DNA of 64,000 nucleotides from Eubacteriales bacterium (GCA_045542115.1 JAZQKK010000033.1:488-64487), one strand, 5' to 3'; positions 2,829 to 28,462 are shown, counted from the first letter of the stretch. The notes: generated from the letters alone by a model not told the origin. Numbers and translations are program-made.

Positions 2829-2970
2829 AGGTATGAAATTGTGGTCAAAATAAGAGGGTTTACAGAACTGGTCAAAATTGTGGTCAAACGATACTTTTAG
2901 GAAATATAAAGTGCGAAAAGTCCAGTGTTTATGCGGGTTTTTGGGGATTGGGGTCTTGCGATATACTTAG

Positions 2971-3009
2971 CTCCCAAATGTCGCGCGCTACCAACTGCGC
3001 CACACCCCG
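2971..3009 (-). pseudogene. tRNA-Pro 5' half (copy nearest intact gene)
   Basis: CGGGGTGTGGCGCAGTTGGTAGCGCG-CGACA-TTTGGGAG, ends at anticodon loop. Confidence 0.9.
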
Positions 3010-3174
3010 ATGGTATGATATTTTGTTTAAAAAGCGATATTTTCTATAAGTGGTCAAATAGTTGGTCAAAATCAATTTTACAGTAATTTTTGAAAACGGT
3101 CAAGTCCCAAAAACCCAGTGTTTATGCGGGTTTGCGAGCACTCGAACTTCGGAGGTGTCGGGACCGACCACTTG

Positions 3175-3213
3175 TTCCCAAACCACCCGCGCTCCCAGCT
3201 GCGCCACACCCGG
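3175..3213 (-). pseudogene. tRNA-Pro 5' half (middle copy)
   Basis: CCGGGTGTGGCGCAGCTGGGAGCGCG-GGTGG-TTTGGGAA. Confidence 0.85.
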
Positions 3214-3372
3214 ATATCTATTCAATTTTTTCTCTTTCTGCGTGGAAGTGGGACAAACTGTGGTCAAACGCAAATTCCACGCCGTTTTGCGTTTTTATAA
3301 GGTGCCGAAAGTCCGCACTGTTAAAGGCTTTTCGGGACTTCCGTAAAATCTCGGCAATTCGTGCTGGGCACG

Positions 3373-3411
3373 CTCCCAAACCAGGCGCTCTACCAGGGGA
3401 GCTACACCTCA
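3373..3411 (-). pseudogene. tRNA-Pro 5' half (promoter-proximal copy)
   Basis: TGAGGTGTAGCTCCCCTGGTAGAGCG-CCTGG-TTTGGGAG. Confidence 0.8.
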
Positions 3412-3426
3412 AAAGAATCTTTGTGT

Positions 3427-3455
3427 ATTATATCAAATTTCAATGAATTTGTCAA
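3427..3455 (-). promoter_or_regulatory. Consensus sigma-A promoter firing into the tRNA-half array
   Basis: Minus strand TTGACA(3455-3450)-17-TATAAT(3432-3427), 15 bp upstream of first tRNA half. Confidence 0.85.
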
Positions 3456-3493
3456 GGGGATTGCATCGGAGAAATTTTCTCCGATGCAAATTG

Positions 3494-4327
3494 TTATTCT
3501 TCTGTTTTTTTGTAAAGCAACACGGAAAAAGCTGCCGTGGTAGTTAATTCTTTCACAGAATCTAATTTTTGAATGTCTGTGGGGGACGTTTTACGGGCAT
3601 ATGGAGTCATTGAAAACAGGTCTTTAACCGTCTGTGTATCGGTTAGGCACAACGGATAACGCAGTTTTGTATCGGAAACGAGTGTAAAACCGTCATATAT
3701 GGGAATAACCACTTCATTTTCATAAACTGAATCATAAACGGCAGTTTTTAACTCCAAAAGATGGTCTTCCAACGGAATTGCCTTCACGTAAACTGCTCCG
3801 GGTTTAAGTATTCGTAAAAATTCTTCTGCACAGTCCGGGGCAAAAACATTCACAACAACATCTGCCCATTGGTCGGGGAGCGGTAGATGATACAAGCTTG
3901 CAACAGCAAATTCCCCGCCGAAATTTCGCTTTGCAGCCGCATTTAAGGCGTCTTTGGAAATGTCTACACCGGCACTCTGCACCTCGTGCCCGGCTTCTTC
4001 CAATTTTTGATGGATTTCTTGCGTGTACCATCCTTCTCCGCATCCGGCATCAAACAGATTTACGGATTTCGAAAGAAAGGGAACGGCAACGTCGTAAATC
4101 GTTTCCATTAACGGTTTGTAATATCCGGCAGAAAGAAAGGCTGTTCGGGAACGAACCATCGCTCGGTCATCGCCGTGTAAGGTTCCTTGTTGGGACATTA
4201 AAAGGTTTACGTAGCCGCTTTTTGCATAATCATAACAATGTCCTTTGGAACAGTGCAAGGTCTTCCCTATTTTTTCCAACGGTTCACTACAAATAGGACA
4301 ACGAAAAGCACTGATGTTATTCTTCAC
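3494..4327 (-). CDS. rlmA: 23S rRNA m1G745/748 methyltransferase (RlmA family)
   Basis: N-terminal CPIC..C..H zinc finger, GYVNLL, DAGCGEG, LFSMTPY. Confidence 0.8.
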   Translation of the reverse strand: MKNNISAFRCPICSEPLEKIGKTLHCSKGHCYDYAKSGYVNLLMSQQGTLHGDDRAMVRSRTAFLSAGYYKPLMETIYDVAVPFLSKSVNLFDAGCGEGWYTQEIHQKLEEAGHEVQSAGVDISKDALNAAAKRNFGGEFAVASLYHLPLPDQWADVVVNVFAPDCAEEFLRILKPGAVYVKAIPLEDHLLELKTAVYDSVYENEVVIPIYDGFTLVSDTKLRYPLCLTDTQTVKDLFSMTPYARKTSPTDIQKLDSVKELTTTAAFSVLLYKKTEE

Positions 4328-4886
4328 TGTTATTCTCCTGTAAAACAATCGGCTCTTCCCCTTCTCTAAACAACACCGGGGTCGTGTTCGGTAAACAATG
4401 TTTGCTGAGATTTTCGCCGTTTTCTATACCATAGATAGCACCGTACAAAGCACCGGAAAAACCTCCGTGGGATACGACTAAGATTCTTCCATCCGGATGC
4501 TTTTCTTTTACCTCAGAATAGAAGTCCTTTGCTCGGGCAATAACATCCTCTATTATTTCCATTCCGTCTACCCGTTCCCGTCCCAGAACCCACCAATTGC
4601 GAAAGAAATCCTCCGGAAACTGTCCGCCTTCAAAGGGTCCAAAGCACCATTCCGTCAATCGGTCATCCAATATAGGAATAGCGCCGGGAAGAGCGTATTC
4701 CAACGTTTGACGCGTACGGAGTAAGGGGGAGCAGTAAATCGCATCAAAGGTATACTTTTGCAGAATTTTTCCTACCCTTTTCGCATCACTAATTCCAGCT
4801 TCATTCAACGGAACATCACTTTGTCCTTGAAGGCGACGTTCCACATTCCACGGGGTCAGACCGTGACGGAGATAAATCAGTTCCAT
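4317..4886 (-). CDS. Histidine phosphatase (phosphoglycerate mutase family)
   Basis: RHGLT, SPLLRT, VSHGG motifs. Confidence 0.9.
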   Translation of the reverse strand: MELIYLRHGLTPWNVERRLQGQSDVPLNEAGISDAKRVGKILQKYTFDAIYCSPLLRTRQTLEYALPGAIPILDDRLTEWCFGPFEGGQFPEDFFRNWWVLGRERVDGMEIIEDVIARAKDFYSEVKEKHPDGRILVVSHGGFSGALYGAIYGIENGENLSKHCLPNTTPVLFREGEEPIVLQENNSEE

Positions 4887-4899
4887 TTAGATTACAACC

Positions 4900-6636
4900 T
4901 CATTGTGCAAATTGACTGCGGTACAATTTCGCATAAAAACCATTCAAAGCCAACAATTCTTCGTGGGTTCCTTGTTCTACAACGGAGCCTTCCTTCATAA
5001 CTAAAATGCGGTCTGCTTCCCGAATTGTGGACAGCCGGTGTGCCACAATAAACGACGTGCGTCCATTCATCATCTTTGCAAAAGCTCGCTGAATCCGATG
5101 CTCGGTCCGAGTATCAATGGACGACGTTGCTTCATCCAAAATCAACATCGGCGGAAGACACAACATAACCCGAGTGATGCAAAGTAACTGCTTTTGCCCT
5201 TGGGATAAACTACCACCGTCTTCTCCGATTTTCGTATCGTAACCTTCCGGGAGTCTTTGAATGAAACTGTGAGCGTGTGATGCTTTTGCTGCGGCAATAA
5301 TCTCATCCTCCATAGCATCGGGGCGTCCCATTGCAATATTTTCCCAAATCGTTCCGGATTTCAACCAAGTTTCCTGCAATACCATCCCGTAATTTTCCCT
5401 AAGATTATCTCTTGGAACGTGACGAACGTCAACGCCATCCACCTGAATGGAACCGGAAACAGGGTCATAAAAGCGCATTAAAAGGTTGATAACCGTAGTT
5501 TTTCCGCATCCGGTGGGACCGACAATTGCAATTCTTTGCCCCGGTTTTACTGTCAAGGACAAATCTTCAATCAATTTTTGTTCCGGAGTATATGCAAAGC
5601 AAACGCGGTCCAATTGAACGTTCCCACGGACAGTGTCCGGGAGTTTTTGATTTTCGTCGGCAGTGGATTCCGAAGTTTCTTCCAACAAATCAAAAACACG
5701 TGCAGCACAAGCCAATGCATTTTGTAATTCCGTCACAACACCGGAAATTTCATTAAAAGGCTTCGTGTATTGGTTGGCATAACTTAAAAAACTGGATAAC
5801 AGCCCAACCGTCAAACCGCCGGAGATAACGGTTAATGCTCCCACAAACCCTACACAGGCGTATACCAGACTGTTCACAAACCTTGTAGAGGGATTGACCA
5901 GTGAAGAATAAAAGATTGCCTTCAAAGAACAGGAACGAAGTCTTTCGTTCACATCTTCAAACCGCTCTTTTCCACGGGATTCATAGGAAAACGCCTGTAC
6001 CAATTTTTGTTGACCCACCATCTCATCAATCAAAGTCGTCTGCTCTCCTCGGGTGGCGGATTGAACTTGAAACATTGAATAGGTTCTTTTGGCAATAAAA
6101 GATGCAACAAACAAGGAGATAGGCGTAACCAAAACCACGACAATTGCAATCCGGTAATCCAAAAAAAGCATAATCCCAAGAGTACCGAGAATCGTTGCAA
6201 GTCCGGTAAATAGTTGCGAAAATCCCATCAACAACCCATCGGCAAACGTGTCTACGTCCACAATTACACGGCTGACCAAGTCGCCTACGGGGTGTTTATC
6301 CAAATAATTCAGGGGCAATTCTAATATCTTGGAAAATGCATCTCTGCGAATATCCCGGACCGTTCCATAGGTGATCCGGTTATTGCAGATACTCATCAAC
6401 CATTGCATAACGGCAGTTACGGCTACTGCAATTCCAATCAAGAAAATGATATGAAAAATTTTTGAAAAATCAACGTTTCCCTTTCCGAGAATTACGTCTA
6501 CGGCCTGCCCTGTAAGGATGGGAACATATAATGTTAACGCCACGGTAGCAAGGGAAAAAATCAATGACAAAACGATATAACCGGAATACGGGCGGAGGTA
6601 TGAAAACACGGTTTTTAACGTCTTTTTACGGTTCAT
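4900..6636 (-). CDS. ABC exporter, fused permease/ATPase (heterodimer subunit)
   Basis: TM domain, GPTGCGKT, LSQGQ, LILDEAT. Confidence 0.93.
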   Translation of the reverse strand: MNRKKTLKTVFSYLRPYSGYIVLSLIFSLATVALTLYVPILTGQAVDVILGKGNVDFSKIFHIIFLIGIAVAVTAVMQWLMSICNNRITYGTVRDIRRDAFSKILELPLNYLDKHPVGDLVSRVIVDVDTFADGLLMGFSQLFTGLATILGTLGIMLFLDYRIAIVVVLVTPISLFVASFIAKRTYSMFQVQSATRGEQTTLIDEMVGQQKLVQAFSYESRGKERFEDVNERLRSCSLKAIFYSSLVNPSTRFVNSLVYACVGFVGALTVISGGLTVGLLSSFLSYANQYTKPFNEISGVVTELQNALACAARVFDLLEETSESTADENQKLPDTVRGNVQLDRVCFAYTPEQKLIEDLSLTVKPGQRIAIVGPTGCGKTTVINLLMRFYDPVSGSIQVDGVDVRHVPRDNLRENYGMVLQETWLKSGTIWENIAMGRPDAMEDEIIAAAKASHAHSFIQRLPEGYDTKIGEDGGSLSQGQKQLLCITRVMLCLPPMLILDEATSSIDTRTEHRIQRAFAKMMNGRTSFIVAHRLSTIREADRILVMKEGSVVEQGTHEELLALNGFYAKLYRSQFAQ

Positions 6637-8357
6637 CGCACTTCCTCCCGTTCAAACTGAGAATAGTAAATTTCCTGATAAACCTCGCAAGACGAAAGCA
6701 ATTCGTTGTGAGTCCCCATTCCGACGACTTCTCCGTCATCTAAAACCAAAATGAGGTCTGCGTGACGAACCGAGGAGGCTCGTTGAGAAACGATAAAAGT
6801 CGTAGGGCGGAAGGGCATATTCTGTAAAGCATTACGCAACGATGCTTCGGTTGCATAATCCAAGGCAGAAGCAGAATCGTCCAATATTAGAATTTCGGGT
6901 TGACGAACCAAAGCTCGGGCAATAGTCAATCGCTGACGCTGACCCCCGGAGAAGTTCCGACCGTTTTGCTCCACGATTGCATCCAGCTTACCGTCTTTTT
7001 CCCGAACAAAATCCTCCGCCTGAGCGATGCGAAGTGCCTGCCAGAGTTCCTCATCGGAAGCATCTTCTTTCCCCCATTTTAAATTGTCCCGAATTGTTCC
7101 GCGGAACAAAACTGCTTTTTGGGGAACGATTCCGATATTTTTCCGAAGACTTTCGGTGTCAAATTCAGAAATAGGAACGCCTTTGTAATAAACTGAACCG
7201 GACGTAGCGTCGTAAAAACGGGGAATCAAATTGATAAGAGACGTTTTCCCGGATCCGGTCCCGCCTAAAATCCCTACGGTCTGTCCGCACTGAACCGAAA
7301 ACGTAACATTGGAAAGTGCCGGCTGAGCATCCGCAAAATATTGAATCCCAACCTTTTCGAAACGAAGGATTTCTGCTTTGGAATCTCCGTCTGTCCGCGT
7401 CCCTGAAATTTGTGACGGCACGATATCAAACACGTCACTGACCCGTTTCGCACCGGCCAACGCCTTCGTAATAGTGACGACCAGATTCGCAAACTTTACA
7501 AGTTCTGTCAAAATTTGGGACATATAGTTAATGAGGGCAACGACCATTCCCTGGCTAATAATTCCAAAGTCTACCCGTACTGCGCCAACATAAAGAAGCA
7601 CAACGATTCCAAGATTTACGATTACGTAGGTCAAAGGATTCATCAATGCGGATATCCGCCCAACGTTACACTGAAAGGCGGCTAACTCTTTATTCATTTC
7701 GTTGAATTCAATCTGCTCGTCCGTCTGTTTATTAAAGGCACGGATCACTCTGACACCGGAAAGGTTTTCCCGGGTTTTCAACACAACCCCATCTACTTTT
7801 TTTTGCAGCATCTTATACTTTGGCAGCGTAACTCTCATAATCAGCCAAACCACCAAGTATAGCAACGGGATGACTGCAACAAAAATCAAAGCAGATACGC
7901 CATCGATAACAAAGGCCATCACCATTGCACCCAAAACAACGAAGGGTGAACGAAGCAACAAGCGGAGAGTCATATTCACCCCGGTCTGCATCAGATTCAC
8001 ATCCCCGGTCATTCGGGTAATCATCGTTGAAGTTCCAAGCGTATCCATATCTTTGTATGACAGAGACTGTAAATGGGAAAATAATGATTTACGAACTCCG
8101 GCAGAAAAACCAACGGCAGATTTTGCAGAAAAGTACTGTGCCGTAACCGCGGCAAGAAGCCCAATAACACCAAGTCCGACTAAAACACAGGACATTCCCA
8201 CGATATAATTTTTATCTTTGTTCGCAATCCCTGTGTCAATAATTGCGGCCATTACCAAGGGAACCAGCAACTCTAAAATAGCCTCAAAAAGTTTAAATAA
8301 CGGGGCAAGAATCGTTTCTTTTTTATATGGTGCCAGATATCGCAACATTTTTTTCAT
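6633..8357 (-). CDS. ABC exporter, fused permease/ATPase (degenerate-site subunit)
   Basis: TM domain, GGTGSGKT, FSGGQ, LILDDS. Confidence 0.93.
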   Translation of the reverse strand: MKKMLRYLAPYKKETILAPLFKLFEAILELLVPLVMAAIIDTGIANKDKNYIVGMSCVLVGLGVIGLLAAVTAQYFSAKSAVGFSAGVRKSLFSHLQSLSYKDMDTLGTSTMITRMTGDVNLMQTGVNMTLRLLLRSPFVVLGAMVMAFVIDGVSALIFVAVIPLLYLVVWLIMRVTLPKYKMLQKKVDGVVLKTRENLSGVRVIRAFNKQTDEQIEFNEMNKELAAFQCNVGRISALMNPLTYVIVNLGIVVLLYVGAVRVDFGIISQGMVVALINYMSQILTELVKFANLVVTITKALAGAKRVSDVFDIVPSQISGTRTDGDSKAEILRFEKVGIQYFADAQPALSNVTFSVQCGQTVGILGGTGSGKTSLINLIPRFYDATSGSVYYKGVPISEFDTESLRKNIGIVPQKAVLFRGTIRDNLKWGKEDASDEELWQALRIAQAEDFVREKDGKLDAIVEQNGRNFSGGQRQRLTIARALVRQPEILILDDSASALDYATEASLRNALQNMPFRPTTFIVSQRASSVRHADLILVLDDGEVVGMGTHNELLSSCEVYQEIYYSQFEREEVR

Positions 8358-8586
8358 TAAACATTCTCCGGACATTATAAGTTGTACCTTTTATTTTAAC
8401 ATAAAACATACGGTAAGTCAAGGGATTCTTGCGGAAAGAATCGAACTTATCGTTACAAATTTTTTCCCTAAAAGATAGTTCAGTTTTTTGTCGAAAAAGA
8501 ACTCTTGCAGAGACCGTCTTATTATGTTATAATAAGAGTGTATTTTATTTTGCAAAGGAATGGGCTAAACCCAAAGGAAAGCAGAA

Positions 8587-11549: not shown

Positions 11550-14500
11550 ATGTTGTACAAAAAGAACGATTCAAAGGAACTGTCCCCGGAATTGTTCCAA
11601 AACCCCACCGCAGAATACCGTGGAACTCCCTTCTGGGCTTGGAACGGCAAGTTGGAAAAAGACGAACTGCTCCGCCAAATTGAAATTTTTAAGGAAATGG
11701 GATTGGGCGGATTCCATATGCACGTGCGTACCGGCCTGGAAAACACGTATTTGGGAGATGAATTTAAAGAACTGGTCCAGGCTTGTACTAAAAAAGCAAA
11801 GGACGAGCAGATGCTTTCCTGGCTTTATGACGAAGACCGTTGGCCTTCCGGTGCAGCAGGTGGGATTGTCACGAAGGACAAACAATTCCGCAAACGCCAC
11901 GCACTGTTTACTGCAACCCCCTATCAAGGAAACGAAAATAACAAATTTAACGGTTCTCAGGCCCGAGCGGTCCGTCAGGGCGACGGTGAATTGTTGGCAA
12001 TTTACGATATTGAACTGACCGATGACGGCTATTTAAAATCTTATCGCCGTATCAAAGACGTTTCAGAGGCGCAATTCGAAGTTCGCTATCTTTATATCGA
12101 AATTGCCGCGAATTCCACTTGGTACAACAATCAAGCTTACGTCAATACCCTGGACAAAAAAGCAATGGACCGGTTCATTGAAGTTACGTATAACTTCTAT
12201 AAAGATGCCGTTGGGGAAGAATTTGACGAAACGGTTCCCGCCATTTTTACCGATGAACCTCAGTTTACCCGCAAGAGTATGTTGACGTTTGCAAGAGAAA
12301 AGATTGACGTTACCTTACCTTGGACTGATGATTTAAACGATACCTTCCGGGAAGCCTATGGAGAAGATTTGGTTGATTCTTTCCCCGAGCTTATTTGGGA
12401 TTTGGCCGACGGAAAAATTTCTACCGTCCGCTATCATTACCACGACCACGTGGCAGAACGCTTTGCCGTTGCATTTGCAGACAATTGCGGAAATTGGTGT
12501 AAGGAACACAATTTGAAATTGACCGGTCATATGATGGAAGAACCGACGTTGCTCAAACAGACTGCGGCACTGGGTGAGGCGATGCGGTCGTACCGTTCCT
12601 TCCAATTGCCCGGTATCGATATGTTGCAAGCACGGTTCGAATATACCACGGCAAAGCAATGCCAATCCGCTGTACATCAGTACGGATACGAAGGAATGAT
12701 GAGCGAGCTTTACGGTGTAACAGGCTGGGATTTCGATTTCCGCGGTCACAAGCTTCACGGAGACTGGCAAGCCGCACTTGGAGTTACGATTCGTGTCCCC
12801 CACCTTTCTTGGTACACAATGAAGGGGGAAGCAAAACGCGACTATCCCGCGTCGATTCATTATCAATCCCCCTGGTACAAAGAATATTCTTACGTTGAAG
12901 ACCACTTTGCCCGTGTGGCATCTGCAATGACCCGCGGAACGCCGGACGTTAAAGTAGGCGTTATTCACCCTGTGGAAAGTTATTGGCTCCATTGGGGACC
13001 GGAAGAACAGACTTCTGCCATCCGGGAACAAATGGACAACAACTTCCAGAACTTGACACAATGGCTCTTGTTCGGTTCTGTGGACTTTGATTTCATCTCG
13101 GAATCCCTCTTCCCCGCCGAATGTCCCACTCCCGGAGCACCTTTGGCGGTAGGAAAAATGAACTATGATGTTATCATTGTTCCCGAATGTGAAACCCTTC
13201 GTTCCACGACGTTGGAACGATTGGAAACATTCCGAAATGCCGGCGGCCGCTTGATCTTCTTGGGACAAAAACCCTCTCTGGAAAATGCAGTACCCTCCGA
13301 ACGGCCAGGGAAACTCTTTGATCTATCCGAACAAATCACTTTCAGCGAAAATCAGATTTTGAATGCTCTCGAAGACATCCGTGCAATATCCATTAAAGGT
13401 GCCGACGGAAAAAATACCAACAACCTTCTGCATCAGATTCGGGTGGACGGAAACGGGAAATGGGTCTTTATCGCCCACGGCGTGGAACCCTATTCCAAAG
13501 ATATTTCCACACCTCAACAGCTGCGGATTACATTATCCGGAGAATGGAACGTTACCCTTTTCGACACGATGACCGGAAAAATTTCCCCCGTTCAGGCGGA
13601 AGCCAAAAACGGAAAAACCTATCTTGTTACCACAATCTACGATTATGACTCTTTGTTGTATCGCCTGACTCCCGTGGGAGAACCTCTCCCCTTGGGAATC
13701 AATACTTCCGAAACGATCGTTACCGACAATCTCGGTGGAGACTTCTACGTTTATGCTTCTGCGGAAGAACCGGAAGCTGCCGTTCGGGAAACAGGAACAG
13801 TGGACGTCCCCAATATGGTATGCTATACTCTTTCCGAACCCAACGTATGCTTGATTGACCAAGCGGAATTTGCAAAAGATGATGAACCGTACCGTCCTGC
13901 GGAAGAAATTCTTCGGGCAGACAACATTATCCGTAGTGAATTAGGTCTGGAAAAGAGGGGCGGACACGTGGCTCAGCCTTGGGTCTTGGAGAAGATTCCC
14001 GCAACCCATACCATCCGTCTTCGCTACACGGTAAACTGCACCTTCCGTTGCCGTGTTCCTTATTTGGCATTGGAAGATGCCGACAAAGCAACGATTCTTT
14101 TGAATGGAAAGAAAATTCACATCACCGATTGCGGTTATTACGTAGATAAATCCATTCGCAAAGTATTGTTGCCGGCGTTGGCGAAAGGTAAAAACGTCAT
14201 CGAAGTGATTCTTCCCATCGGCCCGAATACCAATACGGAATGGATGTATCTTTTGGGCAATTTTGCAGTTCACAATGAAGGTCGGATGAATACTCTTTCT
14301 CCGTTGCCGGAAAAGATACCTTTTGATGACATCGTTTATCAAGGTTTCCCCTTTTATAGCGGCGAATTTACTTACCACATTCCGGTGAATTCCGCCGGAG
14401 GGGAATTAACCGTCCGTCTTCCCCGGTTCCGTGCTACGGTCAATAAAGTTTCCGTAGATGGGGCGTCTGAATTGATTGCTTATCCTCCTTACGCGGCTAA

Positions 14501-14699
14501 AATCCCTATCGCGGCAGGAAAACACACCGTTGACCTTACCTGCTATATTCCCCGCACCAACGGATTTGCTCCTCTCCACACGGTCGTGGATGAATATCAG
14601 AGTCCCCGGATGTGGCGGCAGACGGAAGACCGTTGGATTTATAACTATCGATTCTATCCCGAAGGCCTTTTGACAGAACCTCAGATTAAAATTAAATAA
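11550..14699 (+). CDS. Large glycoside hydrolase, GH106 (alpha-L-rhamnosidase)-like
   Basis: PFWAWNG, WLYDEDRWPSG, AIFTDEP, PGID motifs; no signal peptide evident. Confidence 0.7.
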   Translation: MLYKKNDSKELSPELFQNPTAEYRGTPFWAWNGKLEKDELLRQIEIFKEMGLGGFHMHVRTGLENTYLGDEFKELVQACTKKAKDEQMLSWLYDEDRWPSGAAGGIVTKDKQFRKRHALFTATPYQGNENNKFNGSQARAVRQGDGELLAIYDIELTDDGYLKSYRRIKDVSEAQFEVRYLYIEIAANSTWYNNQAYVNTLDKKAMDRFIEVTYNFYKDAVGEEFDETVPAIFTDEPQFTRKSMLTFAREKIDVTLPWTDDLNDTFREAYGEDLVDSFPELIWDLADGKISTVRYHYHDHVAERFAVAFADNCGNWCKEHNLKLTGHMMEEPTLLKQTAALGEAMRSYRSFQLPGIDMLQARFEYTTAKQCQSAVHQYGYEGMMSELYGVTGWDFDFRGHKLHGDWQAALGVTIRVPHLSWYTMKGEAKRDYPASIHYQSPWYKEYSYVEDHFARVASAMTRGTPDVKVGVIHPVESYWLHWGPEEQTSAIREQMDNNFQNLTQWLLFGSVDFDFISESLFPAECPTPGAPLAVGKMNYDVIIVPECETLRSTTLERLETFRNAGGRLIFLGQKPSLENAVPSERPGKLFDLSEQITFSENQILNALEDIRAISIKGADGKNTNNLLHQIRVDGNGKWVFIAHGVEPYSKDISTPQQLRITLSGEWNVTLFDTMTGKISPVQAEAKNGKTYLVTTIYDYDSLLYRLTPVGEPLPLGINTSETIVTDNLGGDFYVYASAEEPEAAVRETGTVDVPNMVCYTLSEPNVCLIDQAEFAKDDEPYRPAEEILRADNIIRSELGLEKRGGHVAQPWVLEKIPATHTIRLRYTVNCTFRCRVPYLALEDADKATILLNGKKIHITDCGYYVDKSIRKVLLPALAKGKNVIEVILPIGPNTNTEWMYLLGNFAVHNEGRMNTLSPLPEKIPFDDIVYQGFPFYSGEFTYHIPVNSAGGELTVRLPRFRATVNKVSVDGASELIAYPPYAAKIPIAAGKHTVDLTCYIPRTNGFAPLHTVVDEYQSPRMWRQTEDRWIYNYRFYPEGLLTEPQIKIK

Positions 14700-21351: not shown

Positions 21352-21507
21352 CTGACCTTATTAAATTATCCTTTCTAAAAAAGTGGATATCACCAAATTC
21401 ATTATAACTCATTTTTTCACTTTTGTAAAGAATCTTTGCGCAGATTACCAAAAAAAGAGGAAATTTCATATAATGGACAGAAAACGAGCAACGGGAGGGA
21501 CCTCACA

Positions 21508-22560
21508 TTGAACGGAACGACCATTAGAACCTTTCTGGGAGCAAACTCGGCAAAAGGATTTGCGTCGCTTTATCCTTCGTTTACCGAAAACAACCGCACT
21601 ATCATCATTAAGGGTGGGCCGGGAAGCGGAAAAAGCAGTATTATGAAAAGATTTGCAGCCAAGGCATTGAAAGAAAACTTCTTTGTAGAATATTGCTATT
21701 GCTCTTCCGATGCAGACTCCCTGGATGCAATCCGAATTCCGGAAAAATCTTTGTGCGTCGTCGATGGAACTGCACCCCACCTACTCGAACCACGATTTCC
21801 GGGCGCACACGATGAAATTTTCTACACAGGACAATTTTGGAATCGGGATACGTTAGAAAAATCATTCCCGGAAATTCAACAATTGACTCATCACATCAAA
21901 GGATGCTTCGCCCGAGCATACCGTTATCTTGCGGCCGCAGAAAAAACGGCAGATGATATCCGCGCTACGGCACTAAATAACGCACAAAAAGAAAAGCTTT
22001 GTAAATTTGCGCGGGATATGAGCAGGCGACTCATCCCCAGAAGAAACGGTTTCACCCTTTTGCGACCTCGATTTTTGAATTCTATCAGTCCCCAGGGATA
22101 CGTAATTGCCCGGGACACTGTTTATACCTTAGCGGAACGGGTTTTCGTTTTGGATGACCCCTATCGCATTTCCGATGTTTTTTTGGATGAACTAATGAAA
22201 AGCGCCGAAGACAGCGGCCAAGAAATCTATCTGTTTTACGACCCATTATGTCCGGATAAATTGCAGCATTTAGTCTTCCCTGAATGCGGGATTGCTTTTG
22301 TAACTGCAAACAAAACCTTCACATTTGAAGCGCAAAATGCATATAGAATTCATCTGGAACGCTTTTTAGATATCAATAATGATATTAAAAAAGTATGCCG
22401 CGTTGCCGAACAGCAAATTGATTTCTGTTACCAACAAGCGCTGTGTTCTTTGAAAAAAGAAAAAGCATACCACGACGATTTGGAAGAGTTTTATATTGAG
22501 GCAATGGATTTCAAAGGATTAAACAATTACGTTACTAAATTTATGAAGCAATTTTTCTGA
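21508..22560 (+). CDS. PRK06851-like P-loop ATPase
   Basis: FLGANSAKGF, KGGPGSGKS, CSSDADSLD, DGTAPH; start uncertain (TTG after GGGAGG). Confidence 0.7.
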   Translation: MNGTTIRTFLGANSAKGFASLYPSFTENNRTIIIKGGPGSGKSSIMKRFAAKALKENFFVEYCYCSSDADSLDAIRIPEKSLCVVDGTAPHLLEPRFPGAHDEIFYTGQFWNRDTLEKSFPEIQQLTHHIKGCFARAYRYLAAAEKTADDIRATALNNAQKEKLCKFARDMSRRLIPRRNGFTLLRPRFLNSISPQGYVIARDTVYTLAERVFVLDDPYRISDVFLDELMKSAEDSGQEIYLFYDPLCPDKLQHLVFPECGIAFVTANKTFTFEAQNAYRIHLERFLDINNDIKKVCRVAEQQIDFCYQQALCSLKKEKAYHDDLEEFYIEAMDFKGLNNYVTKFMKQFF

Positions 22561-22563
22561 CAT

Positions 22564-22597
22564 AAAAAACGCCGGCAGAGACTTTCTGTCGGCGTTT
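22564..22597. terminator. Intrinsic terminator between convergent genes
   Basis: AAACGCCGGCAGA-GACTT-TCTGTCGGCGTTT. Confidence 0.75.
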
Positions 22598-22602
22598 CAG
22601 CG

Positions 22603-23118
22603 TTAAAATCGTGTTCGGTATTGATATTGATTTCTTTTCCTTTTCTTGAACAGTTCCGGAAATTCTCGTTTTAATTTAAGATAATATACCGAAAACACTC
22701 CGGCCCAAATCAAAAAAATAAGGTGTTCTGCTAAAAGAAAGTACATCTGCCATCCGTTTGCGGAATTTATTATATCCAAGACGATCCAAACACTGTCCGC
22801 AATCCACAATCCGCAAATTGCCCAAATACACACGGCTTTTCCATTGCGTCGAAACAGAACAAGCAAAGTCAAAATCGTCAATATGACAAAAGAACTAAGA
22901 TAAATAAAATACAACCATCGGGTCGCGGCTAAATAATTTTCCGATAACCAATCTTCATTATACTCAGAATAGAGAAAAACCCATTTAAAGTAATAAACAC
23001 CAAAAAACGGCGGAAGATAATTCTGTGTAATCTGCCATATCAGCGTCATTACAAACGTAGATAGCAACGGATACGTGGATAAAAGCGAAAACAATTGTAA
23101 TTTTTGTTTTTGGGTCAT
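22603..23118 (-). CDS. Hypothetical membrane protein
   Basis: About four hydrophobic segments, GGAG RBS. Confidence 0.65.
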   Translation of the reverse strand: MTQKQKLQLFSLLSTYPLLSTFVMTLIWQITQNYLPPFFGVYYFKWVFLYSEYNEDWLSENYLAATRWLYFIYLSSFVILTILTLLVLFRRNGKAVCIWAICGLWIADSVWIVLDIINSANGWQMYFLLAEHLIFLIWAGVFSVYYLKLKREFPELFKKRKRNQYQYRTRF

Positions 23119-23131
23119 AATTTACTCCATT

Positions 23132-24283: not shown

Positions 24284-24376
24284 CTTTTCTCCCCTTTTTT
24301 CAAGTATATCATACGTTGGTAAAAATGTCAAGACATTATCCACCCATCACGATTTGAATTCAAAGAAGAATTATAT

Positions 24377-24408
24377 ATGAAAGCAACAGGAATAGTTCGT
24401 AGAATCGA
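24377..24408 (+). pseudogene. Displaced 5' fragment of spoVT (copy 1, synonymous codon differences)
   Basis: ATGAAAGCAACAGGAATAGTTCGTAGAATCGA = MKATGIVRRI. Confidence 0.9.
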
Positions 24409-24424
24409 GGCTCGTGTTATAATT

Positions 24425-25219
24425 TTACTCCGCTTTTGTCATATAACAGTTCCGGTATTCTGTTGGTGACATCTGATAGTGCTTTTTGAACATTTTATTA
24501 AAATATATTGAGTCGCTGACGCCTACCTCTGCTGCTATTTGGTTAATGGACTTTGTCGTTCCTTGCAGTAGCTCTGCTGCTATGGACATCCGATAATTAT
24601 TAAGGAAACAAATCGGGGAAACGCCCATTTGTTTCTTAAAGACTGCAAACAAATGTGAAGTAGAAAGATGGGTTTTGTGTGCAATATCCTCGACCGATAT
24701 TTTTTCTCTGTAGTTATCTTTTATATAACGTAAGGCTTGCTCTATATATGGGGATGACGGCTGTTCTTTTTCATCTGCAACCAAAGAAAGAAGTTTGACT
24801 ATTTGATAATAATAAATAGATTCGTTAAAAGCATTATCTGTATCAAACAATCTGTCAAAAACCGAATTCATTTCTGCCTTGACTTCTTCCGGCAAAATTG
24901 TCGGAAAACTGAATTTTTCATCAAAATCATAAACATCGTTGATTTTGACTTTAATAAAAACCCAACGGCAGATCATACTTTTACTGGCGAGGTCTGTATT
25001 ATGTACAATGCGTTGGTATACGTTTGACGGGGCAATAAAAAAGCCGCCATTTCCTGTATTGTGCATCGCTCCGTTGTCAAGCTGAATGTCATACGACCCT
25101 TCAACTGCCTGCACAACTGATAAATATGGCAGCACCTTTGAGTGACAAGAACCGTCACACGTGGTAGAAGAAAAACCACTTTTATGGGCATATTCTATAT
25201 TGATTTTTCCAATATGCAT
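24425..25219 (-). CDS. AraC family transcriptional regulator
   Basis: C-terminal double HTH (LSTSHLFAVFKKQMG...YFNKMFKKHYQMSPTEYR). Confidence 0.92.
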   Translation of the reverse strand: MHIGKINIEYAHKSGFSSTTCDGSCHSKVLPYLSVVQAVEGSYDIQLDNGAMHNTGNGGFFIAPSNVYQRIVHNTDLASKSMICRWVFIKVKINDVYDFDEKFSFPTILPEEVKAEMNSVFDRLFDTDNAFNESIYYYQIVKLLSLVADEKEQPSSPYIEQALRYIKDNYREKISVEDIAHKTHLSTSHLFAVFKKQMGVSPICFLNNYRMSIAAELLQGTTKSINQIAAEVGVSDSIYFNKMFKKHYQMSPTEYRNCYMTKAE

Positions 25220-25310
25220 ATTCTCACCTCAATAGTATTATACCAAAAAATAGTATTATTGTCAATTGTTTATAATAGTTTTATTTGTTATAATTTAGTT
25301 GAGGTGATAG

Positions 25311-27446
25311 ATGATGGATTTTTTTGCAGTTAATGGAAAAAGACCGATAAGAATGAGTGAAGAAACAAGAAAATTTGCTTTTGATTCTTTAAATCATAAA
25401 TACGGCCTTGAAACCTGGAGTACGCCCGCTGTTTCAATGGACGATTATGAGGGGTTTGAGAATTTATCCCCACTTCAAAAATACGATGCGGCCATAGAGT
25501 GTATTGTAAAAACTGCACCTATTCGGATATGTGACGGAGAAAGAATCAGTGGTGCGGCAACTTTGGGACTTGCTATGACCCACCAAATCCCTGCTACATT
25601 TCATCGCGAACAAGGGATTTTCGGATCCATAAGTCATTTGACAATTGATTTTGAAACAGTAATCAAAAAAGGCATTAATCACATTCAAAAGCAAGCTGAA
25701 GAAAGCCTAAAAAACCACATAGGAACAGACAAAGAACCTTTTATACGGAGTTGTTTGCATTGCCTTGATTGTATGCGAATATGGCACGGGCGATATTTGA
25801 ACGCATTGCAAAACAAGCCTGGGTATCGTGCAAACTATGAGAATCTGCAACGTGTACCATTTGAACCGGCAAGAAATTTTTATGAAGCAGTACAAAGCAT
25901 TTGGTTCACTTTTGCGTTTGTTCGCCTTTGCGGAAATTGGACGGGAATTGGCAGAATTGACTGGCTTTTGGGCGACTATCTTGAAAATGATTTAACAAAC
26001 GGTGATTTGACCGTTGATGAGGCACGAGAAATATTGGCACACCTTTTTATTAAGGGTTGCGAATGGGTAAAAGGCGGCAACTATGGTTCCGGTGATGCTC
26101 AGCACTATCAGAATATCCTACTCGGTGGCGTTGATGAAAACGGTAACGGTGTCAACAATACAGTTACATACCTCGTGTTAGATATATTGGAAGAATTTGG
26201 AATAAGCGATTTCCCCACAACTGTACGTATCAACAAAAACACAGACGTCAAACTGTTAAATCGCATTTCAGAGGTTATACGATACGGTGGCGGTGTTATT
26301 GCCGTATATAACGAAGATTTGATTATAGAATCGCTTGTTGATTACGGATACGAACTTAGCGAGGCGAGAAAATTTGCCAATGACGGATGCTGGGAAATTC
26401 AAATACCTGGCAAAACATTTTTTACATATATCCCGTTTGATGCCTTGCAAATTTTGCAGCAAAACACGCTTGATAATTATAGCGGAAAGGTTAATTTTTC
26501 AGATTTTGATTCATTGTACAAAGTCTTTGTTAATGATTTAAAAAGCAAGGTTACAGACATTGTTGTTTCAAGAAATAAGAAATGTTTTATATATACCGCA
26601 GTGCCGAAAAAGGATTGGAAATGGAAACCGTCAACTCCGTGCACGGTAGTTTCTCTTTTTGAGCAGGGTTGCGTTGAAAATGGTCTCTCATACCTTGAAG
26701 GCGGACCGATTTATAATGTTGTTTCTCCCCATATCGGCGGCTTGCCGGATGTAGTTAACAATCTTTATGCAATTAAAAAGTTGGTATTCGATGAACAAAA
26801 AGTAACGTTTGAAGAACTTATGCAGTTGTTAAAAACCAATTGGGAAGATAACGAAGCACTTCGACAATATGCTCTTAATAAGTATCCTTATTTTGGAAAC
26901 GATAATGACGAAGTGGATAGCATTGCTAAAAATATCATAAGTGAATTCGCTGATATCTGCGACAATTTAGAAAGCGGATATAAAACCCCCGCAGGTGTCA
27001 GTACGTTTGGGCGACAATTAGAATGGTCCCGTCTGCGAATGGCAACCGCCTACGGCAAGAAAGCACACAACGTGTTAGCAGGAAACTTCTCGCCAACTCC
27101 CGGCACCGATAAAGAAGGGGCAACAGCTATTATCAAATCATATTGTAAGGTTGATCTAAAACAAACCGTATCGGGCGCAGCACTCGATATCAAATTGTTG
27201 CCGTCCTCTGTCAACGGTGAAAACGGCGTTGAGGCTATAAGTTCTTTGATTAAGGGTTTTGTTACACTTGGTGGGCATTTTATGCAGTTGGATATTGCCG
27301 ATACAGAGCTACTGAAAAAAGCACAAGAGCATCCGGAAGAATACCAAAATTTATCAGTGCGTGTGTCCGGTTGGAATGCTCGTTTTGTCACATTGAATCG
27401 GGAATGGCAGGATATGATTATCGCGCAGACAGGAAGTGAATTATGA
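25311..27446 (+). CDS. Glycyl radical enzyme (PFL-like family), function unknown
   Basis: GRIDWLL, Cys loop NDGCWE, Gly loop LSVRVSGWNARF. Confidence 0.92.
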   Translation: MMDFFAVNGKRPIRMSEETRKFAFDSLNHKYGLETWSTPAVSMDDYEGFENLSPLQKYDAAIECIVKTAPIRICDGERISGAATLGLAMTHQIPATFHREQGIFGSISHLTIDFETVIKKGINHIQKQAEESLKNHIGTDKEPFIRSCLHCLDCMRIWHGRYLNALQNKPGYRANYENLQRVPFEPARNFYEAVQSIWFTFAFVRLCGNWTGIGRIDWLLGDYLENDLTNGDLTVDEAREILAHLFIKGCEWVKGGNYGSGDAQHYQNILLGGVDENGNGVNNTVTYLVLDILEEFGISDFPTTVRINKNTDVKLLNRISEVIRYGGGVIAVYNEDLIIESLVDYGYELSEARKFANDGCWEIQIPGKTFFTYIPFDALQILQQNTLDNYSGKVNFSDFDSLYKVFVNDLKSKVTDIVVSRNKKCFIYTAVPKKDWKWKPSTPCTVVSLFEQGCVENGLSYLEGGPIYNVVSPHIGGLPDVVNNLYAIKKLVFDEQKVTFEELMQLLKTNWEDNEALRQYALNKYPYFGNDNDEVDSIAKNIISEFADICDNLESGYKTPAGVSTFGRQLEWSRLRMATAYGKKAHNVLAGNFSPTPGTDKEGATAIIKSYCKVDLKQTVSGAALDIKLLPSSVNGENGVEAISSLIKGFVTLGGHFMQLDIADTELLKKAQEHPEEYQNLSVRVSGWNARFVTLNREWQDMIIAQTGSEL

Positions 27447-28258
27447 TGCTTATCAGCGATATACAACGCTTTTGTATACACGACGGTCCCGGAATCAGAA
27501 CAACGGTGTTTTTCAAAGGCTGTCCGCTTCGCTGCGAGTGGTGTCACAATCCCGAAACGCAATGCCGTCAAAAAGAACTTTTGTTTTATAAAGAAAAGTG
27601 TATTGGGTGCGGAATTTGCGGAGTTTGTGATAACAAAACTTGTATTGTCTGCGGCGAGTGTGCCAAAAACTGTCCAACAGGTGCAAGAGAGGTTGCAGGA
27701 TATGAGTACACAGCACAAGAATTATACGACCAAATTCAAAGAGACATTGCTTTTTACGGTGAAAACGGTGGTGTCACCTTTTCGGGCGGCGAATGTATGA
27801 TGCAAATTGAACCATTGGCAGAAGTGCTTAAAATGTGCAAAGAAAAGGCTATACATACTGCTATTGACACCGCGGGCCACGTGCCGTTTGAGAATTTTCA
27901 AAAAATTCTGCCGTATACGGATATTTTTCTTTATGACATTAAAACCATTGATTCCGCAAAGCATAAACAATACACGGGTGTAGGGAATGAACAGATTTTA
28001 AACAACTTGAAAATGTTATTTAAAACCGGAATCACCATATGGATTCGCATTCCGATTATTCCTTCGGTTAATGATACGATAGAAGAAATGCAAAAAATAA
28101 AAGCTTTTTTGGATATGAGTGGTTCACCTGAAAAGATAGAATTGCTACCCTATCACCCAATGGGCGAGAGTAAAAATCAAGCACTTGGAAAATCTCAACG
28201 CACATTCAAAATTCCCGATCCCCCAAAAATGAAATTACTTAGAGAAATCTTCAAGTAA
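27443..28258 (+). CDS. Glycyl radical enzyme activating enzyme (radical SAM)
   Basis: HDGPGIRTTVFFKGCPLRCEWCHNPE, ferredoxin-like insert, GGVTFSGGE, ELLPYH. Confidence 0.95.
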   Translation: MMLISDIQRFCIHDGPGIRTTVFFKGCPLRCEWCHNPETQCRQKELLFYKEKCIGCGICGVCDNKTCIVCGECAKNCPTGAREVAGYEYTAQELYDQIQRDIAFYGENGGVTFSGGECMMQIEPLAEVLKMCKEKAIHTAIDTAGHVPFENFQKILPYTDIFLYDIKTIDSAKHKQYTGVGNEQILNNLKMLFKTGITIWIRIPIIPSVNDTIEEMQKIKAFLDMSGSPEKIELLPYHPMGESKNQALGKSQRTFKIPDPPKMKLLREIFK

Positions 28259-28264
28259 ACATAA

Positions 28265-28321
28265 GTATAAATCTCCTTGTTTTACACATAATAGTATCAC
28301 TATTACCAGAACAAGGAGATT
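28265..28321 (+). promoter_or_regulatory. Forespore sigma-G/F-type promoter plus RBS-pairing inverted repeat (cassette A right end)
   Basis: GTATA-17-CATAATA; AATCTCCTTGTT(28270-28281)/AACAAGGAGATT(28310-28321). Confidence 0.7.
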
Positions 28322-28330
28322 GATTTATAT

Positions 28331-28362
28331 ATGAAAGCAACAGGTATTGTACGTCGCATCGA
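28331..28362 (+). pseudogene. Displaced 5' fragment of spoVT (copy 2)
   Basis: 39-bp identity 28324-28362 with 35390-35428. Confidence 0.93.
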
Positions 28363-28462
28363 GGAATGTGTTATATTAGGACAAAAGTTGTCGAAACACA
28401 TAAACACTGGAGTTTTAGCAGTTTATGATTGGTCTTAATTTGCACAAAACAAATATTTACAT

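Follow-up and report, generated by a model that had tools for sequence, protein, structure and literature searches.

A short box shared by 5'-displacing cassettes at tRNA-Pro and spoVT and by other mobile elements of Clostridia, with a possible accessory-protein role

Why should a tRNA gene and a sporulation gene of one bacterium be bordered by the same short sequence? The question is raised by a stretch of 64,000 nucleotides from a Eubacteriales bacterium (GCA_045542115.1, JAZQKK010000033.1:488-64487), hereafter called the window, in which a 28-bp motif recurs near displaced 5' ends of both genes. An initial annotation ascribed this recurrence to one family of 5'-displacing elements that share a binding site for an accessory factor and receive their recombinase in trans. 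We have followed the box through the window, the source genome and related mobile elements, weighing this accessory-site reading, which we tentatively prefer, against other explanations.

At the tRNA-Pro locus three displaced 5' halves lie upstream of the intact gene, in gene-free units of ~190 bp each:

1..2455, plus strand: end of a larger element abutting the locus, with a UvrD-like helicase with zinc ribbon, DUF6809 and HTH_17-Fic
2584..2607, minus strand: internal tRNA-Pro fragment from anticodon stem to T loop (96%), downstream of the intact gene
2753..2828, minus strand: intact tRNA-Pro(TGG), the integration target (ARAGORN; Rfam tRNA 70.6 bits)
2847..2875, minus strand: promoter-like site TTGACC-17-TATTTT, supplied by the last unit to the rebuilt tRNA
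2906..2933, minus strand: box copy 1 (28-mer), in the unit adjoining the intact tRNA-Pro
2970..3010, minus strand: displaced tRNA-Pro 5' half (88% identity to the intact gene)
3099..3126, minus strand: box copy 2, with an exact 12-mer core at 3115-3126 and 7 mismatches over the 28-mer
3140..3214, minus strand: displaced tRNA-Pro copy, 5' half (3174-3214 at 80%) plus decayed 3' part
3297..3332, minus strand: box copy 3, degenerate, in the outermost tRNA unit (read from the sequence)
3372..3412, minus strand: outermost displaced tRNA-Pro 5' half

The outermost half is probably the original host copy, since a perfect TTGACA-17-TATAAT promoter (12/12 match) lies by it at 3455-3427. Each TTTGACC word that recurs in the tRNA units is the -35 box of a promoter-like site such as the one at 2847..2875. 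The internal fragment at 2584..2607 had gone unrecorded in the initial annotation; past it come a decayed box-like stretch and then the Fic/DUF6809/helicase element, an arrangement that is the same in L004. The same helicase, DUF6809 and Fic gene set is found downstream of tRNA-Pro in L004, L009, L012, L019, L020 and L038.

The second array lies ahead of spoVT and consists of two cassettes:

24377..24408, plus strand: spoVT 5' fragment A, displaced (the gene's first 32 nt)
24409..28330, plus strand: cassette A, encoding an AraC regulator and a glycyl-radical enzyme with its activase, plus a spoVT promoter of its own
28331..28362, plus strand: spoVT 5' fragment B, displaced
28363..28398, plus strand: cassette B junction segment, conserved among spoVT-targeting cassettes, a presumed recombinase half-site
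28363..35396, plus strand: cassette B, with 8 cargo genes followed by its own sigma-G-type spoVT promoter and leader
28399..28426, plus strand: box copy (28-mer)
28466..28493, no strand assigned: hairpin and T run between the box and a convergent AraC gene (read from the sequence)
35397..35939, plus strand: intact spoVT, the integration target (SpoVT_C 2.3e-33; MazE_antitoxin/AbrB-type N-terminus)

Fragment A is a third copy of the spoVT 5' end and, like the box-less cassette A that it precedes, is an addition to the initial annotation; neither a box nor a recombinase was found in cassette A. Fragment B sits in a 39-nt stretch (28324-28362) that is identical to the surroundings of the intact spoVT start. 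The cargo of cassette B comprises AraC, an enolase-superfamily enzyme, a hydrolase, an RraA-like aldolase, a KDPG aldolase, a PfkB kinase, an SDR and an MBL-fold protein. The hairpin at 28466..28493 is likely a bidirectional terminator. A terminator consensus scan did not flag it, and in 28 related left ends the homologous hairpin shows compensatory changes in 6/8 pairs.

The two 28-mers (28399-28426, plus; 2906-2933, minus) are identical at 25 of 28 positions, with 3 mismatches, a match that none of 100 dinucleotide-shuffled windows reproduced. Both point away from the displaced 5' fragment of the target gene. At spoVT, 36 nt separate the last position of gene homology (28362) from the first of the box (28399); in the tRNA unit, 38 nt separate the end of the displaced half's anticodon loop (2972) from the box start at 2933. 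The 12-mer CATAAACACTGG, with at most one mismatch, has three matches in the window, at 2922-2933 (minus), 3115-3126 (minus) and 28399-28410 (plus), against a chance expectation of 0.27 and no shuffle in 100 with at least three. The 19-bp identity between 2922-2940 and 3115-3133 is exact, and copy 2 starts 49 nt past the anticodon loop of its near-full-length pseudo-tRNA. When all 37 contigs of the 1.93-Mb genome were scanned with the 28-mer, nothing with fewer than 8 mismatches appeared outside the known sites. The genome holds the two 28-mers and two more copies in the tRNA-Pro array; the degenerate copy at 3297..3332 escapes a scan allowing up to 8 mismatches and is visible on inspection. 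The descriptive part of the initial annotation thus holds: a motif shared by the two loci, about 35-37 bp past the breakpoint and reading away from the 5' fragment, with versions in the other tRNA units, in two arrays of 5'-displacing insertions.

The spacing recurs in other genomes, where the initial annotation had proposed to look for it. In 33 of 41 non-redundant spoVT junctions the box, with at most 2 mismatches in 12, begins 36-38 nt from where the gene homology stops. Among 30 displaced tRNA-Pro halves that carry it, it starts 38 nt past the anticodon loop in 21, 49 nt in eight and 47 nt in one; the unit type of copy 1, a 38-nt junction followed by the box, is also present in L020, L035 and L038. 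A single junction type is found behind many different tRNA 5'-half variants, which places the crossover at the anticodon loop. Like CIME arrays, these loci consist of tandem units that have target-gene repeats at their borders, and the intact target stands at one end. Recombinase or transfer genes are absent from the cassette units: none in the 11 ORFs of the two spoVT cassettes, none in 36 ORFs of metagenome loci and none in 18 cargo ORFs of genome loci outside L260. The window yielded no tyrosine recombinase, and the 5 tyrosine and 3 large serine recombinases of the source genome are located elsewhere, none linked to a box site. The recombinase-less cassettes agree with the proposal of a recombinase acting in trans; no co-occurring enzyme was found near the sites in this genome. 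Judged from sequence, the data fit a cis-acting protein site together with a recombinase in trans.

The box extends well beyond these two targets. Its 15-nt core is present in 36 of 401 sampled Clostridia genomes (42 matches versus 4 for the reversed control), in 3/46 genomes of the family and in 0/11 other genomes of the genus, a patchiness which argues that the box is mobile rather than a host regulatory element. Among the 29 class-sample loci that were read, junction-proximal positions include the 3' end of lysS (6) or guaA (3), a site within 150 nt of a tRNA (4, and 1 judged by eye), one upstream of ctsR (3) and spoVT (2); the lysS and guaA elements, which have the box in either orientation, replace the 3' ends of those genes. 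Among the nearest ORFs of 78 viral loci, a collection in which some matches are due to chance (by our own estimate, ~100 occurrences of a 15-mer are expected), there are tyrosine integrases in 6, large serine recombinases in 5 and DUF927, DUF5906 or AAA_25 replication proteins in 6. Inverted iterons flank the box in Anaerostipes phage AC844P1, an isolate; a Rep3 replicon has it beside four 22-bp iterons; and in phage and plasmid origins identical iterons occur on either side. Short repeats cluster around 20 of 53 flank-supported copies, with a 7-mer present three or more times within 100 bp, versus 25 of 212 control windows. The orientation varies: both orientations occur behind guaA, and L187 keeps the outer repeat but has the box turned round inside it. 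The claim of one 5'-displacing family sharing an accessory site therefore stands in part: offset and orientation are the same at both targets, but the box is not private to the family, being found also at lysS and guaA 3' ends, at tRNA 3' ends, with both recombinase classes and in iteron origins. Nor do all units possess it, as 20 of 50 displaced tRNA-Pro halves and cassette A are without a box.

What kind of signal could be so widely shared? The conserved box measures ~35 bp, and its core CCGCATAAACACTGG has A-rich sequence to the left and T-rich sequence to the right; in the majority-rule flanks A runs and T runs are spaced ~10 bp. Core conservation partly reflects collection, because copies were gathered by searches that demanded an exact 12- or 15-mer. 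A promoter or small-RNA start reading into the cassette is highly improbable. The promoter scan does call TAAACA-17-TATGAT and TAAACA-17-TATATT in both window copies (9/12 each), and a TGTTATAAT word in the junction segment of spoVT cassettes is followed by ~130 nt ending in a hairpin and T run. Yet a -10-like hexamer at a spacing of 16-18 nt occurs in just 2-4 of 85 flank-supported copies, as at other spacings, and the box is found in both orientations relative to neighbouring genes. No Rfam 15 covariance model matched at the box (E up to 10, and 18 loci at the gathering threshold). G-U is not in excess over A-C: the palindrome around the box counts 13 G-T and 13 A-C mismatches, and this lack of strand asymmetry fits duplex DNA rather than RNA.

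We give little credence to the box as part of a bidirectional terminator or insulator at element edges, which would block read-through from displaced promoters and from host genes with replaced ends. It does lie downstream of transcription units (displaced gene fragments with their promoters, lysS, guaA, genes for recombinases and helicases, tRNAs), preceded by an A run and followed by a T run; it forms the loop of a 10-11-bp stem in L222 and L232, and in L233 and L213 it pairs with its own inverted copy, ahead of a T run behind a tRNA operon. However, a terminator-grade hairpin exists at the box in some copies only, and a scan for intrinsic terminators (G+C-rich hairpin and T run) found none there. 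The window copies fold no better than shuffles (z -1.4, +1.3, -1.7), among 87 distinct copies 45 have a stem of just 3 bp, and pairing between flanking positions does not exceed what column composition would give. In spoVT cassettes, moreover, the covarying hairpin is a separate structure ~60 nt beyond the box, and a conserved 12-15-nt loop is not required for termination.

The main rival to an accessory site is a crossover site of a second site-specific recombinase, at which cargo modules are swapped; it earns this rank because left and right parts reshuffle exactly at the box, an observation that counts against an accessory site and fits a crossover site equally or better. The gene 5' fragment and junction segment would then form a constant platform, making an integron-like cassette system of Clostridia. 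The type of left and right parts switches at the box in the hybrids L036, L198 and L208; in one contig of run X6, 24423 is connected to 28399 by 22 other letters; contigs from other metagenomes are missing cassette B or show the cassettes in a different order; and the inverted box of L187 may be added. In the main spoVT-type left end, inner and outer inverted repeats surround the box to give a 52-bp quasi-palindrome centred on it (L207:159-210; -26.9 kcal/mol, z -4.8), which is not seen in the window copies. In size and layout this palindrome resembles the attP of large serine recombinases, a quasi-palindrome of ~40-50 bp around a central dinucleotide, and in four viral loci (L096, L103, L144, L109) only 23-30 nt separate the box from the end of a large serine recombinase gene. 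This proximity also weighs against an accessory site, as we know of no need of large serine recombinases for host factors. We nevertheless consider a second crossover unlikely. The arrays of many species end in an intact target, and their gene fragments vary while the junction is constant, which therefore places the integration crossover in the gene and not in the box. Array boxes are mostly unsplit, with one type on both sides; none of the 36 box-bearing genomes of the class sample has two boxes flanking an element on a single contig; phage and plasmid origins have the same iterons flanking the box both ways; no recombinase was found in 36 ORFs of the metagenome loci or 18 cargo ORFs of the genome loci; and hybrids could come from homologous recombination across ~30 conserved bases.

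The mobile contexts of the box also bring up a conserved nick region or central element of a transfer or replication origin, with the cassettes as minimal hitchers on helper elements, an explanation that we hold to be quite unlikely. The lysS elements L234, L226 and L227 are ordered as lysS end, box, short repeats and an operon for an HTH_36 or RepA_N protein and a MobL relaxase; a coupling-protein gene starts 170 nt past the box in L225, and the spoVT-integrated element L201 has TrbL-like and NlpC/P60 conjugation genes. MOBT origins of transfer likewise have a conserved centre between element-specific repeats: in the part of the source available, their nick site is conserved and the relaxase-binding repeat is 68 nt away (PMC9371924). 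Genomic islands with an origin of transfer alone are reported, in the accessible text, to be common (10.64898/2026.01.13.699239). On the other hand, the MOBT/Rep_trans nick described in that part of PMC9371924 is CT'AA in the loop of a G+C-rich hairpin; CTAA is absent from the box, whose stems are A/T-rich or missing, and the box is unlike the pLS20 nick region as given in the consulted portion of PMC5313138. There are no relaxases among the 139 nearest ORFs of the viral loci, and in the phage isolate the box lies between iterons of a helicase in which no nickase domain was found. An origin would also leave unexplained the fixed 36-38-nt spacing from two different crossover points.

We thus return to a site for an architectural or accessory protein in integration and replication complexes, which we regard as a possible, tentative answer by analogy with lambda H'. 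At unrelated targets the box lies in the arm at a fixed distance from the crossover, and this points to such a site, as do the use of the box by unrelated machines (tyrosine and serine recombinases, replication origins), the short-repeat clusters, the variable orientation, the phasing of A and T runs and the equal mismatch counts. On the opposite side, the box is dispensable, given the halves and the cassette that are without it; the repeats by the box in tRNA units are -35 boxes of the unit promoters rather than proven arm sites; and E. coli IHF sites are far less conserved than the box core. The H' site of lambda attP, bound by IHF, has an architectural role and separates the core from the P' arm sites. 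Like the box, it acts in cis, is situated in the element-side arm within a few helical turns of the crossover and has A/T tracts on its flanks; such sites also serve in iteron origins and other nucleoprotein complexes. The box has a different sequence from H' and also adjoins serine recombinase genes. The IHF consensus WATCAANNNNTTR was rejected as its description (~5/9 specified positions match, by eye), and we know of no sequence-specific IHF in Clostridia.

An accessory site suggests the following course of events. For integrative cassettes the crossover point would be the anticodon loop in tRNA-Pro and codon 11 in spoVT; the incoming cassette would supply a promoter and gene 5' end, displacing the resident 5' end and leaving the box 36-38 nt inside the left junction, and repeated integration would build the arrays. 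In the attachment-site arm the box would act in cis as a protein-binding, probably DNA-bending site, placed like H' between the crossover core and the remaining arm, and iteron replication origins would use the same site. As the cassettes are without a recombinase, one would be required in trans, together with a protein, contributed by the host or by a helper element, that binds the box. The sequences themselves document the anatomy, the constant spacing, the broad but patchy occurrence, the independence of orientation, the link with clustered short repeats and the lack of RNA, promoter or terminator signatures, whereas binding, bending and who the binder and the recombinase are is what we infer from them.

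Among known systems, integrons offer a first comparison. Their attC sites are imperfect palindromes ending in RYYYAAC and GTTRRRY, in an array headed by the integron integrase. Integron cassettes and integrase-less attC clusters likewise form arrays of small, recombinase-less cassettes that have diverse cargo and one imperfectly palindromic site each, whereas each cassette here has the target gene's promoter and 5' end as well as its own regulators and promoters, its palindrome is without attC end motifs and no integron integrase is nearby. An attC identity was rejected, as the 52-bp palindrome, inspected by eye, agrees only in part with these ends and the window has no tyrosine recombinase.

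To our knowledge, the islands in dusA have no shared accessory box. In the part of the source at hand, dusA-specific integrases direct islands into the 5' end of dusA (PMC4482086); integration into the 5' end of a conserved gene is common to both systems, whereas dusA islands encode their own integrase and differ in targets and host phyla. CIMEs, with their tandem accretion at the att sites of streptococcal ICEs and IMEs, as described in the sections available (PMC5704250), resemble the cassettes in having no integration or transfer genes, in retaining att sites and in standing in tandem at one gene; CIME accretion depends on recombinases supplied in trans, as we propose for these cassettes. 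According to the same sections, however, known CIMEs are decayed ICEs at gene 3' ends (PMC5704250), whereas here the 5' end and promoter are replaced, the tRNA units measure only ~190 bp, the spoVT units are cargo cassettes of 1-7 kb and a common box is shared across targets. iOriTs, in the accessible text of 10.64898/2026.01.13.699239, are likewise minimal integrated elements, reduced to their cis sites and dependent on helpers for a ride, and both iOriTs and box loci have defence genes near the cis site. The box differs from the published nick sequences compared (available parts of PMC9371924 and PMC5313138), and an origin-of-transfer role is only a candidate.

Our literature search found no description of the box. 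Its recurrence next to attachment sites and replication origins in a wide range of unrelated mobile elements of gut Clostridia gives it the look of a common docking place, as yet undescribed, for a helper protein.

Both 28-mers by which the initial annotation had recognized the conserved motif, hereafter the box, at 2906-2933 (minus strand) and 28399-28426 (plus strand) of the window, are present with 25 of 28 bases identical, while 100 shuffles gave 0 matches. The window contains three copies of the 12-mer core CATAAACACTGG (0.27 expected), the 19-bp identity between 2922-2940 and 3115-3133 is borne out by repeat comparison, and a decayed copy is seen in the sequence near 3297-3332. The window corresponds to positions 488-64487 of contig C33. 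Across the genome containing the window (1.93 Mb, 37 contigs), the 28-mer has no match with fewer than eight mismatches besides these sites. The box is real, and broader in length and spread than initially claimed. Its conserved part covers approximately 35 bp and includes the 15-mer CCGCATAAACACTGG, which mostly has AAAC before it and a T run behind it; all box sets were gathered by an exact 12- or 15-mer, and conservation of the core is therefore set partly by the search. The 15-mer is present in 3 of 46 genomes of the family, in 0 of 11 other genomes of the genus, and in 36 of 401 genomes of the class (42 matches vs. 4 for the reversed control). This patchy distribution points to mobile DNA rather than to a host regulatory site. 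No relevant paper in the open-access literature searched contains the box 12-mers.

At the spoVT locus, two repeats of the 5' end of the gene delimit two cassettes:

24377-24408, first 32 nt of spoVT, repeated
24409-28330, cassette A: AraC regulator, glycyl-radical enzyme, activase
28331-28362, first 32 nt of spoVT, repeated
28363-35396, cassette B: AraC regulator plus eight enzymes from a pathway of sugar-acid type
35397-35939, spoVT, intact

None of the 11 ORFs of cassettes A and B is a recombinase, and each cassette ends with its own copy of the spoVT promoter and leader. In cassette B, the box starts 36 nt past the end of the spoVT homology; cassette A lacks a box because its AraC gene ends at the junction. 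The spoVT junction word was found in 15 of 401 genomes of the order (0 matches for the control) and in 23 distinct metagenome contigs. A box with at most two mismatches lies 36-38 nt past the breakpoint at 33 of the 41 non-redundant spoVT left ends, and with at most three mismatches a box is found at 36 of the 41; one left end has it inverted. Arrays comprise up to three or four cassettes, and other gut metagenomes contain a form without cassette B as well as a form with a different cassette order (contigs of at least 90% likeness, at low depth). The cargo ranges from metabolic and regulatory proteins (malic enzyme, Ldh_2, DeoR and TetR regulators, another glycyl-radical enzyme, radical-SAM proteins) to TIR proteins, an OLD-family nuclease, a type IIG methylase-nuclease, a beta-lactamase-fold protein and an MBG-domain giant protein; no recombinase was found in the cargo of spoVT cassettes from other loci. 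spoVT is an integration hotspot (window 24377-35939; loci L187, L192, L199 and L255-L262), which we did not find described as an integration target in the open-access literature searched. The cassettes that sit there in front of the gene are 1-7 kb long and without recombinase, and each supplies the first 32 nt of spoVT along with a promoter of sigma-G type.

By eye, codons 6-17 of the spoVT target form a quasi-palindrome around ATCGACGAT (window 28355-28395 and 35421-35460). The element-side junction segment resembles the inverted left half of this quasi-palindrome and includes TGTTATAAT, which can also be read as an extended -10 box (both by eye). Immediately upstream of the array (21436-23118), an nSTAND3-type NTPase gene and an ORF of 171 aa without family may belong to the variable region. 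Pfam gave no match at E 1e-4 for a 1049-aa ORF (11550-14699), whose neighbors are trmO and the gene for serine hydroxymethyltransferase.

The second target in the window is a tRNA-Pro gene preceded by an array of displaced 5' halves:

2753-2828, minus strand, tRNA-Pro(TGG), intact
2970-3010, displaced tRNA-Pro 5' half upstream of the intact gene, 88% identity to it
3174-3214, displaced tRNA-Pro 5' half upstream of the intact gene, 80% identity to it
3372-3412, outermost displaced tRNA-Pro 5' half upstream of the intact gene, 78% identity to it

The outermost 5' half has a perfect TTGACA-17-TATAAT promoter (3455-3427), whereas the promoters of the inner units, with TTGACC, are weaker (3103-3075 and 2875-2847). 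From the promoter and 5' half present in each unit, it follows that each insertion supplied a promoter and a new 5' half and moved the older half outward. Between the displaced half's anticodon loop and the box behind it, the distance is 38 nt for the first unit and 49 nt for the second. A survey with a degenerate 25-letter pattern yielded 38 loci in the species collection, mostly from Clostridia. Together with the window this gives 39 sources; in 22 of these a box follows one or more displaced 5' halves of tRNA-Pro(TGG), with a unit length of 190-200 bp in these box-bearing arrays. Counted by displaced half, the box follows in 30 of 50 cases, at offsets of 38 nt (21), 49 nt (8) or 47 nt (1). 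One and the same junction sequence stands behind many differing 5'-half variants, so that the crossover maps to the anticodon loop. Three junction types are distinguished at tRNA-Pro and two at spoVT.

Many species have such arrays upstream of tRNA-Pro(TGG), with two to five units of ~190-200 bp that hold no gene and are composed of tRNA 5' half, junction, box and promoter (window 2840-3460; loci L003-L038). At least seven genomes, this one included, share a conserved element on the downstream side of the intact tRNA-Pro (window 1-2700; loci L004, L009, L012, L019, L020 and L038) that encodes an HTH_17-Fic protein, DUF6809 and a zinc-ribbon helicase of UvrD/RecQ-like type, and that is preceded by an internal tRNA fragment and a decayed box-like stretch.

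We tentatively propose that the box may be a protein site on duplex DNA that would aid the assembly of nucleoprotein complexes. Several features argue for such a site: a spacing fixed at 36-38 nt although the two crossover points are unrelated, a location within the element arm, use by unrelated recombinases and replication initiators, orientation independence, repeat clusters nearby, and A/T runs that are phased. In textbook terms it would be comparable to the IHF H' site of lambda attP. We infer the binding and bending of the box, as well as its binder. The strongest rival explanation is that the box itself is the crossover site. Four independent sequences (loci L036, L198 and L208, and one contig of metagenome run X6) change type exactly at the box, the box can be inverted inside the repeat that surrounds it, and in size the palindrome of the main type equals a serine-integrase attP. 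However, the crossover of an integration into the own gene of each species must lie in that gene, and no element between two boxes was seen; we regard this explanation as unlikely.

That the box acts as a promoter or small RNA is extremely improbable. A -10 box at promoter spacing is not enriched, and an Rfam search gave no family match at the box. The box copies of the window fold no better than shuffles. A conserved hairpin was rejected as well, since flank pairing across 87 distinct copies does not exceed what column composition predicts and 45 of the 87 have a 3-bp stem only. In the commonest spoVT type, the box is the center of a 52-bp quasi-palindrome with a strong fold; both sides have changed in just 2 of 18 pairs and G-T equals A-C (13 vs. 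13), giving no sign of selection on one RNA strand. A role as insulator or terminator is very unlikely: in spoVT cassettes a separate hairpin ~60 nt beyond the box, with 6 of 8 covarying pairs, is the likely terminator. Behind tRNA genes at three loci (L233, L213 and L024), the box and an inverted copy of itself form a stem of 13, 9 and ~13 bp, respectively, with a T run after it, and this two-box structure resembles a true terminator.

By eye, none of the DnaA box, CtsR box, sigma-54, ECF and parS consensus sequences fits the box. In the tRNA units, the TTTGACC repeats look like CtsR half-sites, yet are called as -35 boxes. A Xer/dif-like site was also rejected, as a loose dif-like pattern gave only poor matches in the genome containing the window; CGCATAA may resemble a XerC arm.

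Beyond the two targets of the window, the box was located as follows among the 29 class-sample loci read:

7-13 nt past the lysS stop codon, 6 of 29
At the guaA 3' end, in either orientation, 3 of 29
At most 150 nt from a tRNA gene, 4 of 29, plus one by eye
At spoVT, 2 of 29
Upstream of ctsR, 3 of 29
Within long ORFs, probably by chance, 2 of 29
Elsewhere, 8 of 29

In three genomes of one family (loci L236, L237 and L238) the box lies 40-280 nt upstream of ctsR. This gene may be one more target at its 5' end; alternatively, the box may serve a different function at ctsR. Elements integrated at the lysS 3' end (loci L234, L226 and L227) encode a MobL-family relaxase along with a small protein, HTH_36 or RepA_N, and these genes point away from the box and a GGCTTAA repeat set.

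On viral contigs, the gene nearest the box, among the matches listed (78 loci), encodes a tyrosine integrase (6), a large serine recombinase (5), a helicase-primase with DUF927, DUF5906 or AAA_25 (6), a small terminase (3) or an HNH nuclease (3); part of the viral matches must be chance. In the phage and plasmid collections, the isolated Anaerostipes phage AC844P1, which can infect Anaerostipes caccae, is the sole informative match, and the E. coli genomes searched gave no match. Among cultivable strains, Ructibacterium gallinarum DSM 107454 has the box (locus L001). In AC844P1, where the box is on the opposite strand, and at several loci, inverted element-specific iteron sets flank the box directly after the helicase gene. 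Four 22-bp iterons adjoin the box in a Rep3 replicon (locus L014), and a cluster of short repeats lies within 100 bp of the box in 20 of 53 copies, roughly three times the frequency in control windows (25 of 212). The box could also be read as an origin of replication or of transfer, which we consider quite unlikely. MOBT origins are marked by the nick sequence CT'AA (PMC9371924), and the box lacks CT'AA; the nick region of pLS20 (PMC5313138) is unlike the box. In one viral contig (L083, 4138-4413) a RAGATH-8 RNA is situated ~125 nt from the box, and another contig (L067) has a ROOL RNA in a tRNA cluster (6839-7427) and encodes a 961-aa protein with a weak RdRP-family match.

No recombinase acting on these cassettes was found. 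The five tyrosine and three large serine recombinases of the genome are all located on other contigs, and a genome-wide search using the tRNA array and the fragments of spoVT as queries revealed no further copy of either target site beside them. Extension of eight spoVT-junction loci by up to 20 kb showed just cassettes of 1-6 kb. Downstream of tRNA-Pro, locus L029 carries two tandem tyrosine recombinases. Locus L260 (G668:C10:1-5800) contains two tandem large serine recombinase genes (571 and 578 aa) at 1.8 kb from a junction-word match; it was rejected as a recombinase-bearing spoVT junction because it has the junction word but no spoVT fragment. A 366-aa ORF of locus L017 is integrase-like by eye, but was discarded as it has no Pfam match.

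Under the protein-site reading, the cassettes would behave like CIMEs, elements known from streptococci that lack integration and transfer genes, retain their att sites and stack in tandem at one target gene (PMC5704250); they differ in that the target 5' end is replaced. The box might alternatively be the recombination site of an integron-like cassette system of Clostridia without a resident integrase, which we deem distinctly improbable. spoVT, tRNA-Pro, lysS and guaA would then be platforms that present one box each, a helper-encoded recombinase would capture, lose and reshuffle cargo at the box (metabolic operons, TIR, OLD-family and restriction genes), and phages, plasmids and islands would trade modules through the same site.

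In metagenome bins, many contigs break within a few hundred bases of the box, which is a practical marker of mobile-element edges in such bins. The spoVT arrays accumulate small recombinase-less cassettes with sugar-acid pathways, glycyl-radical enzymes and defence-type genes, and each of these cassettes supplies a fresh sporulation promoter to the target gene. Should the box serve different elements as a common docking site, a single factor would be needed by integrases, replication initiators and perhaps relaxases of gut Clostridia that are otherwise unrelated.
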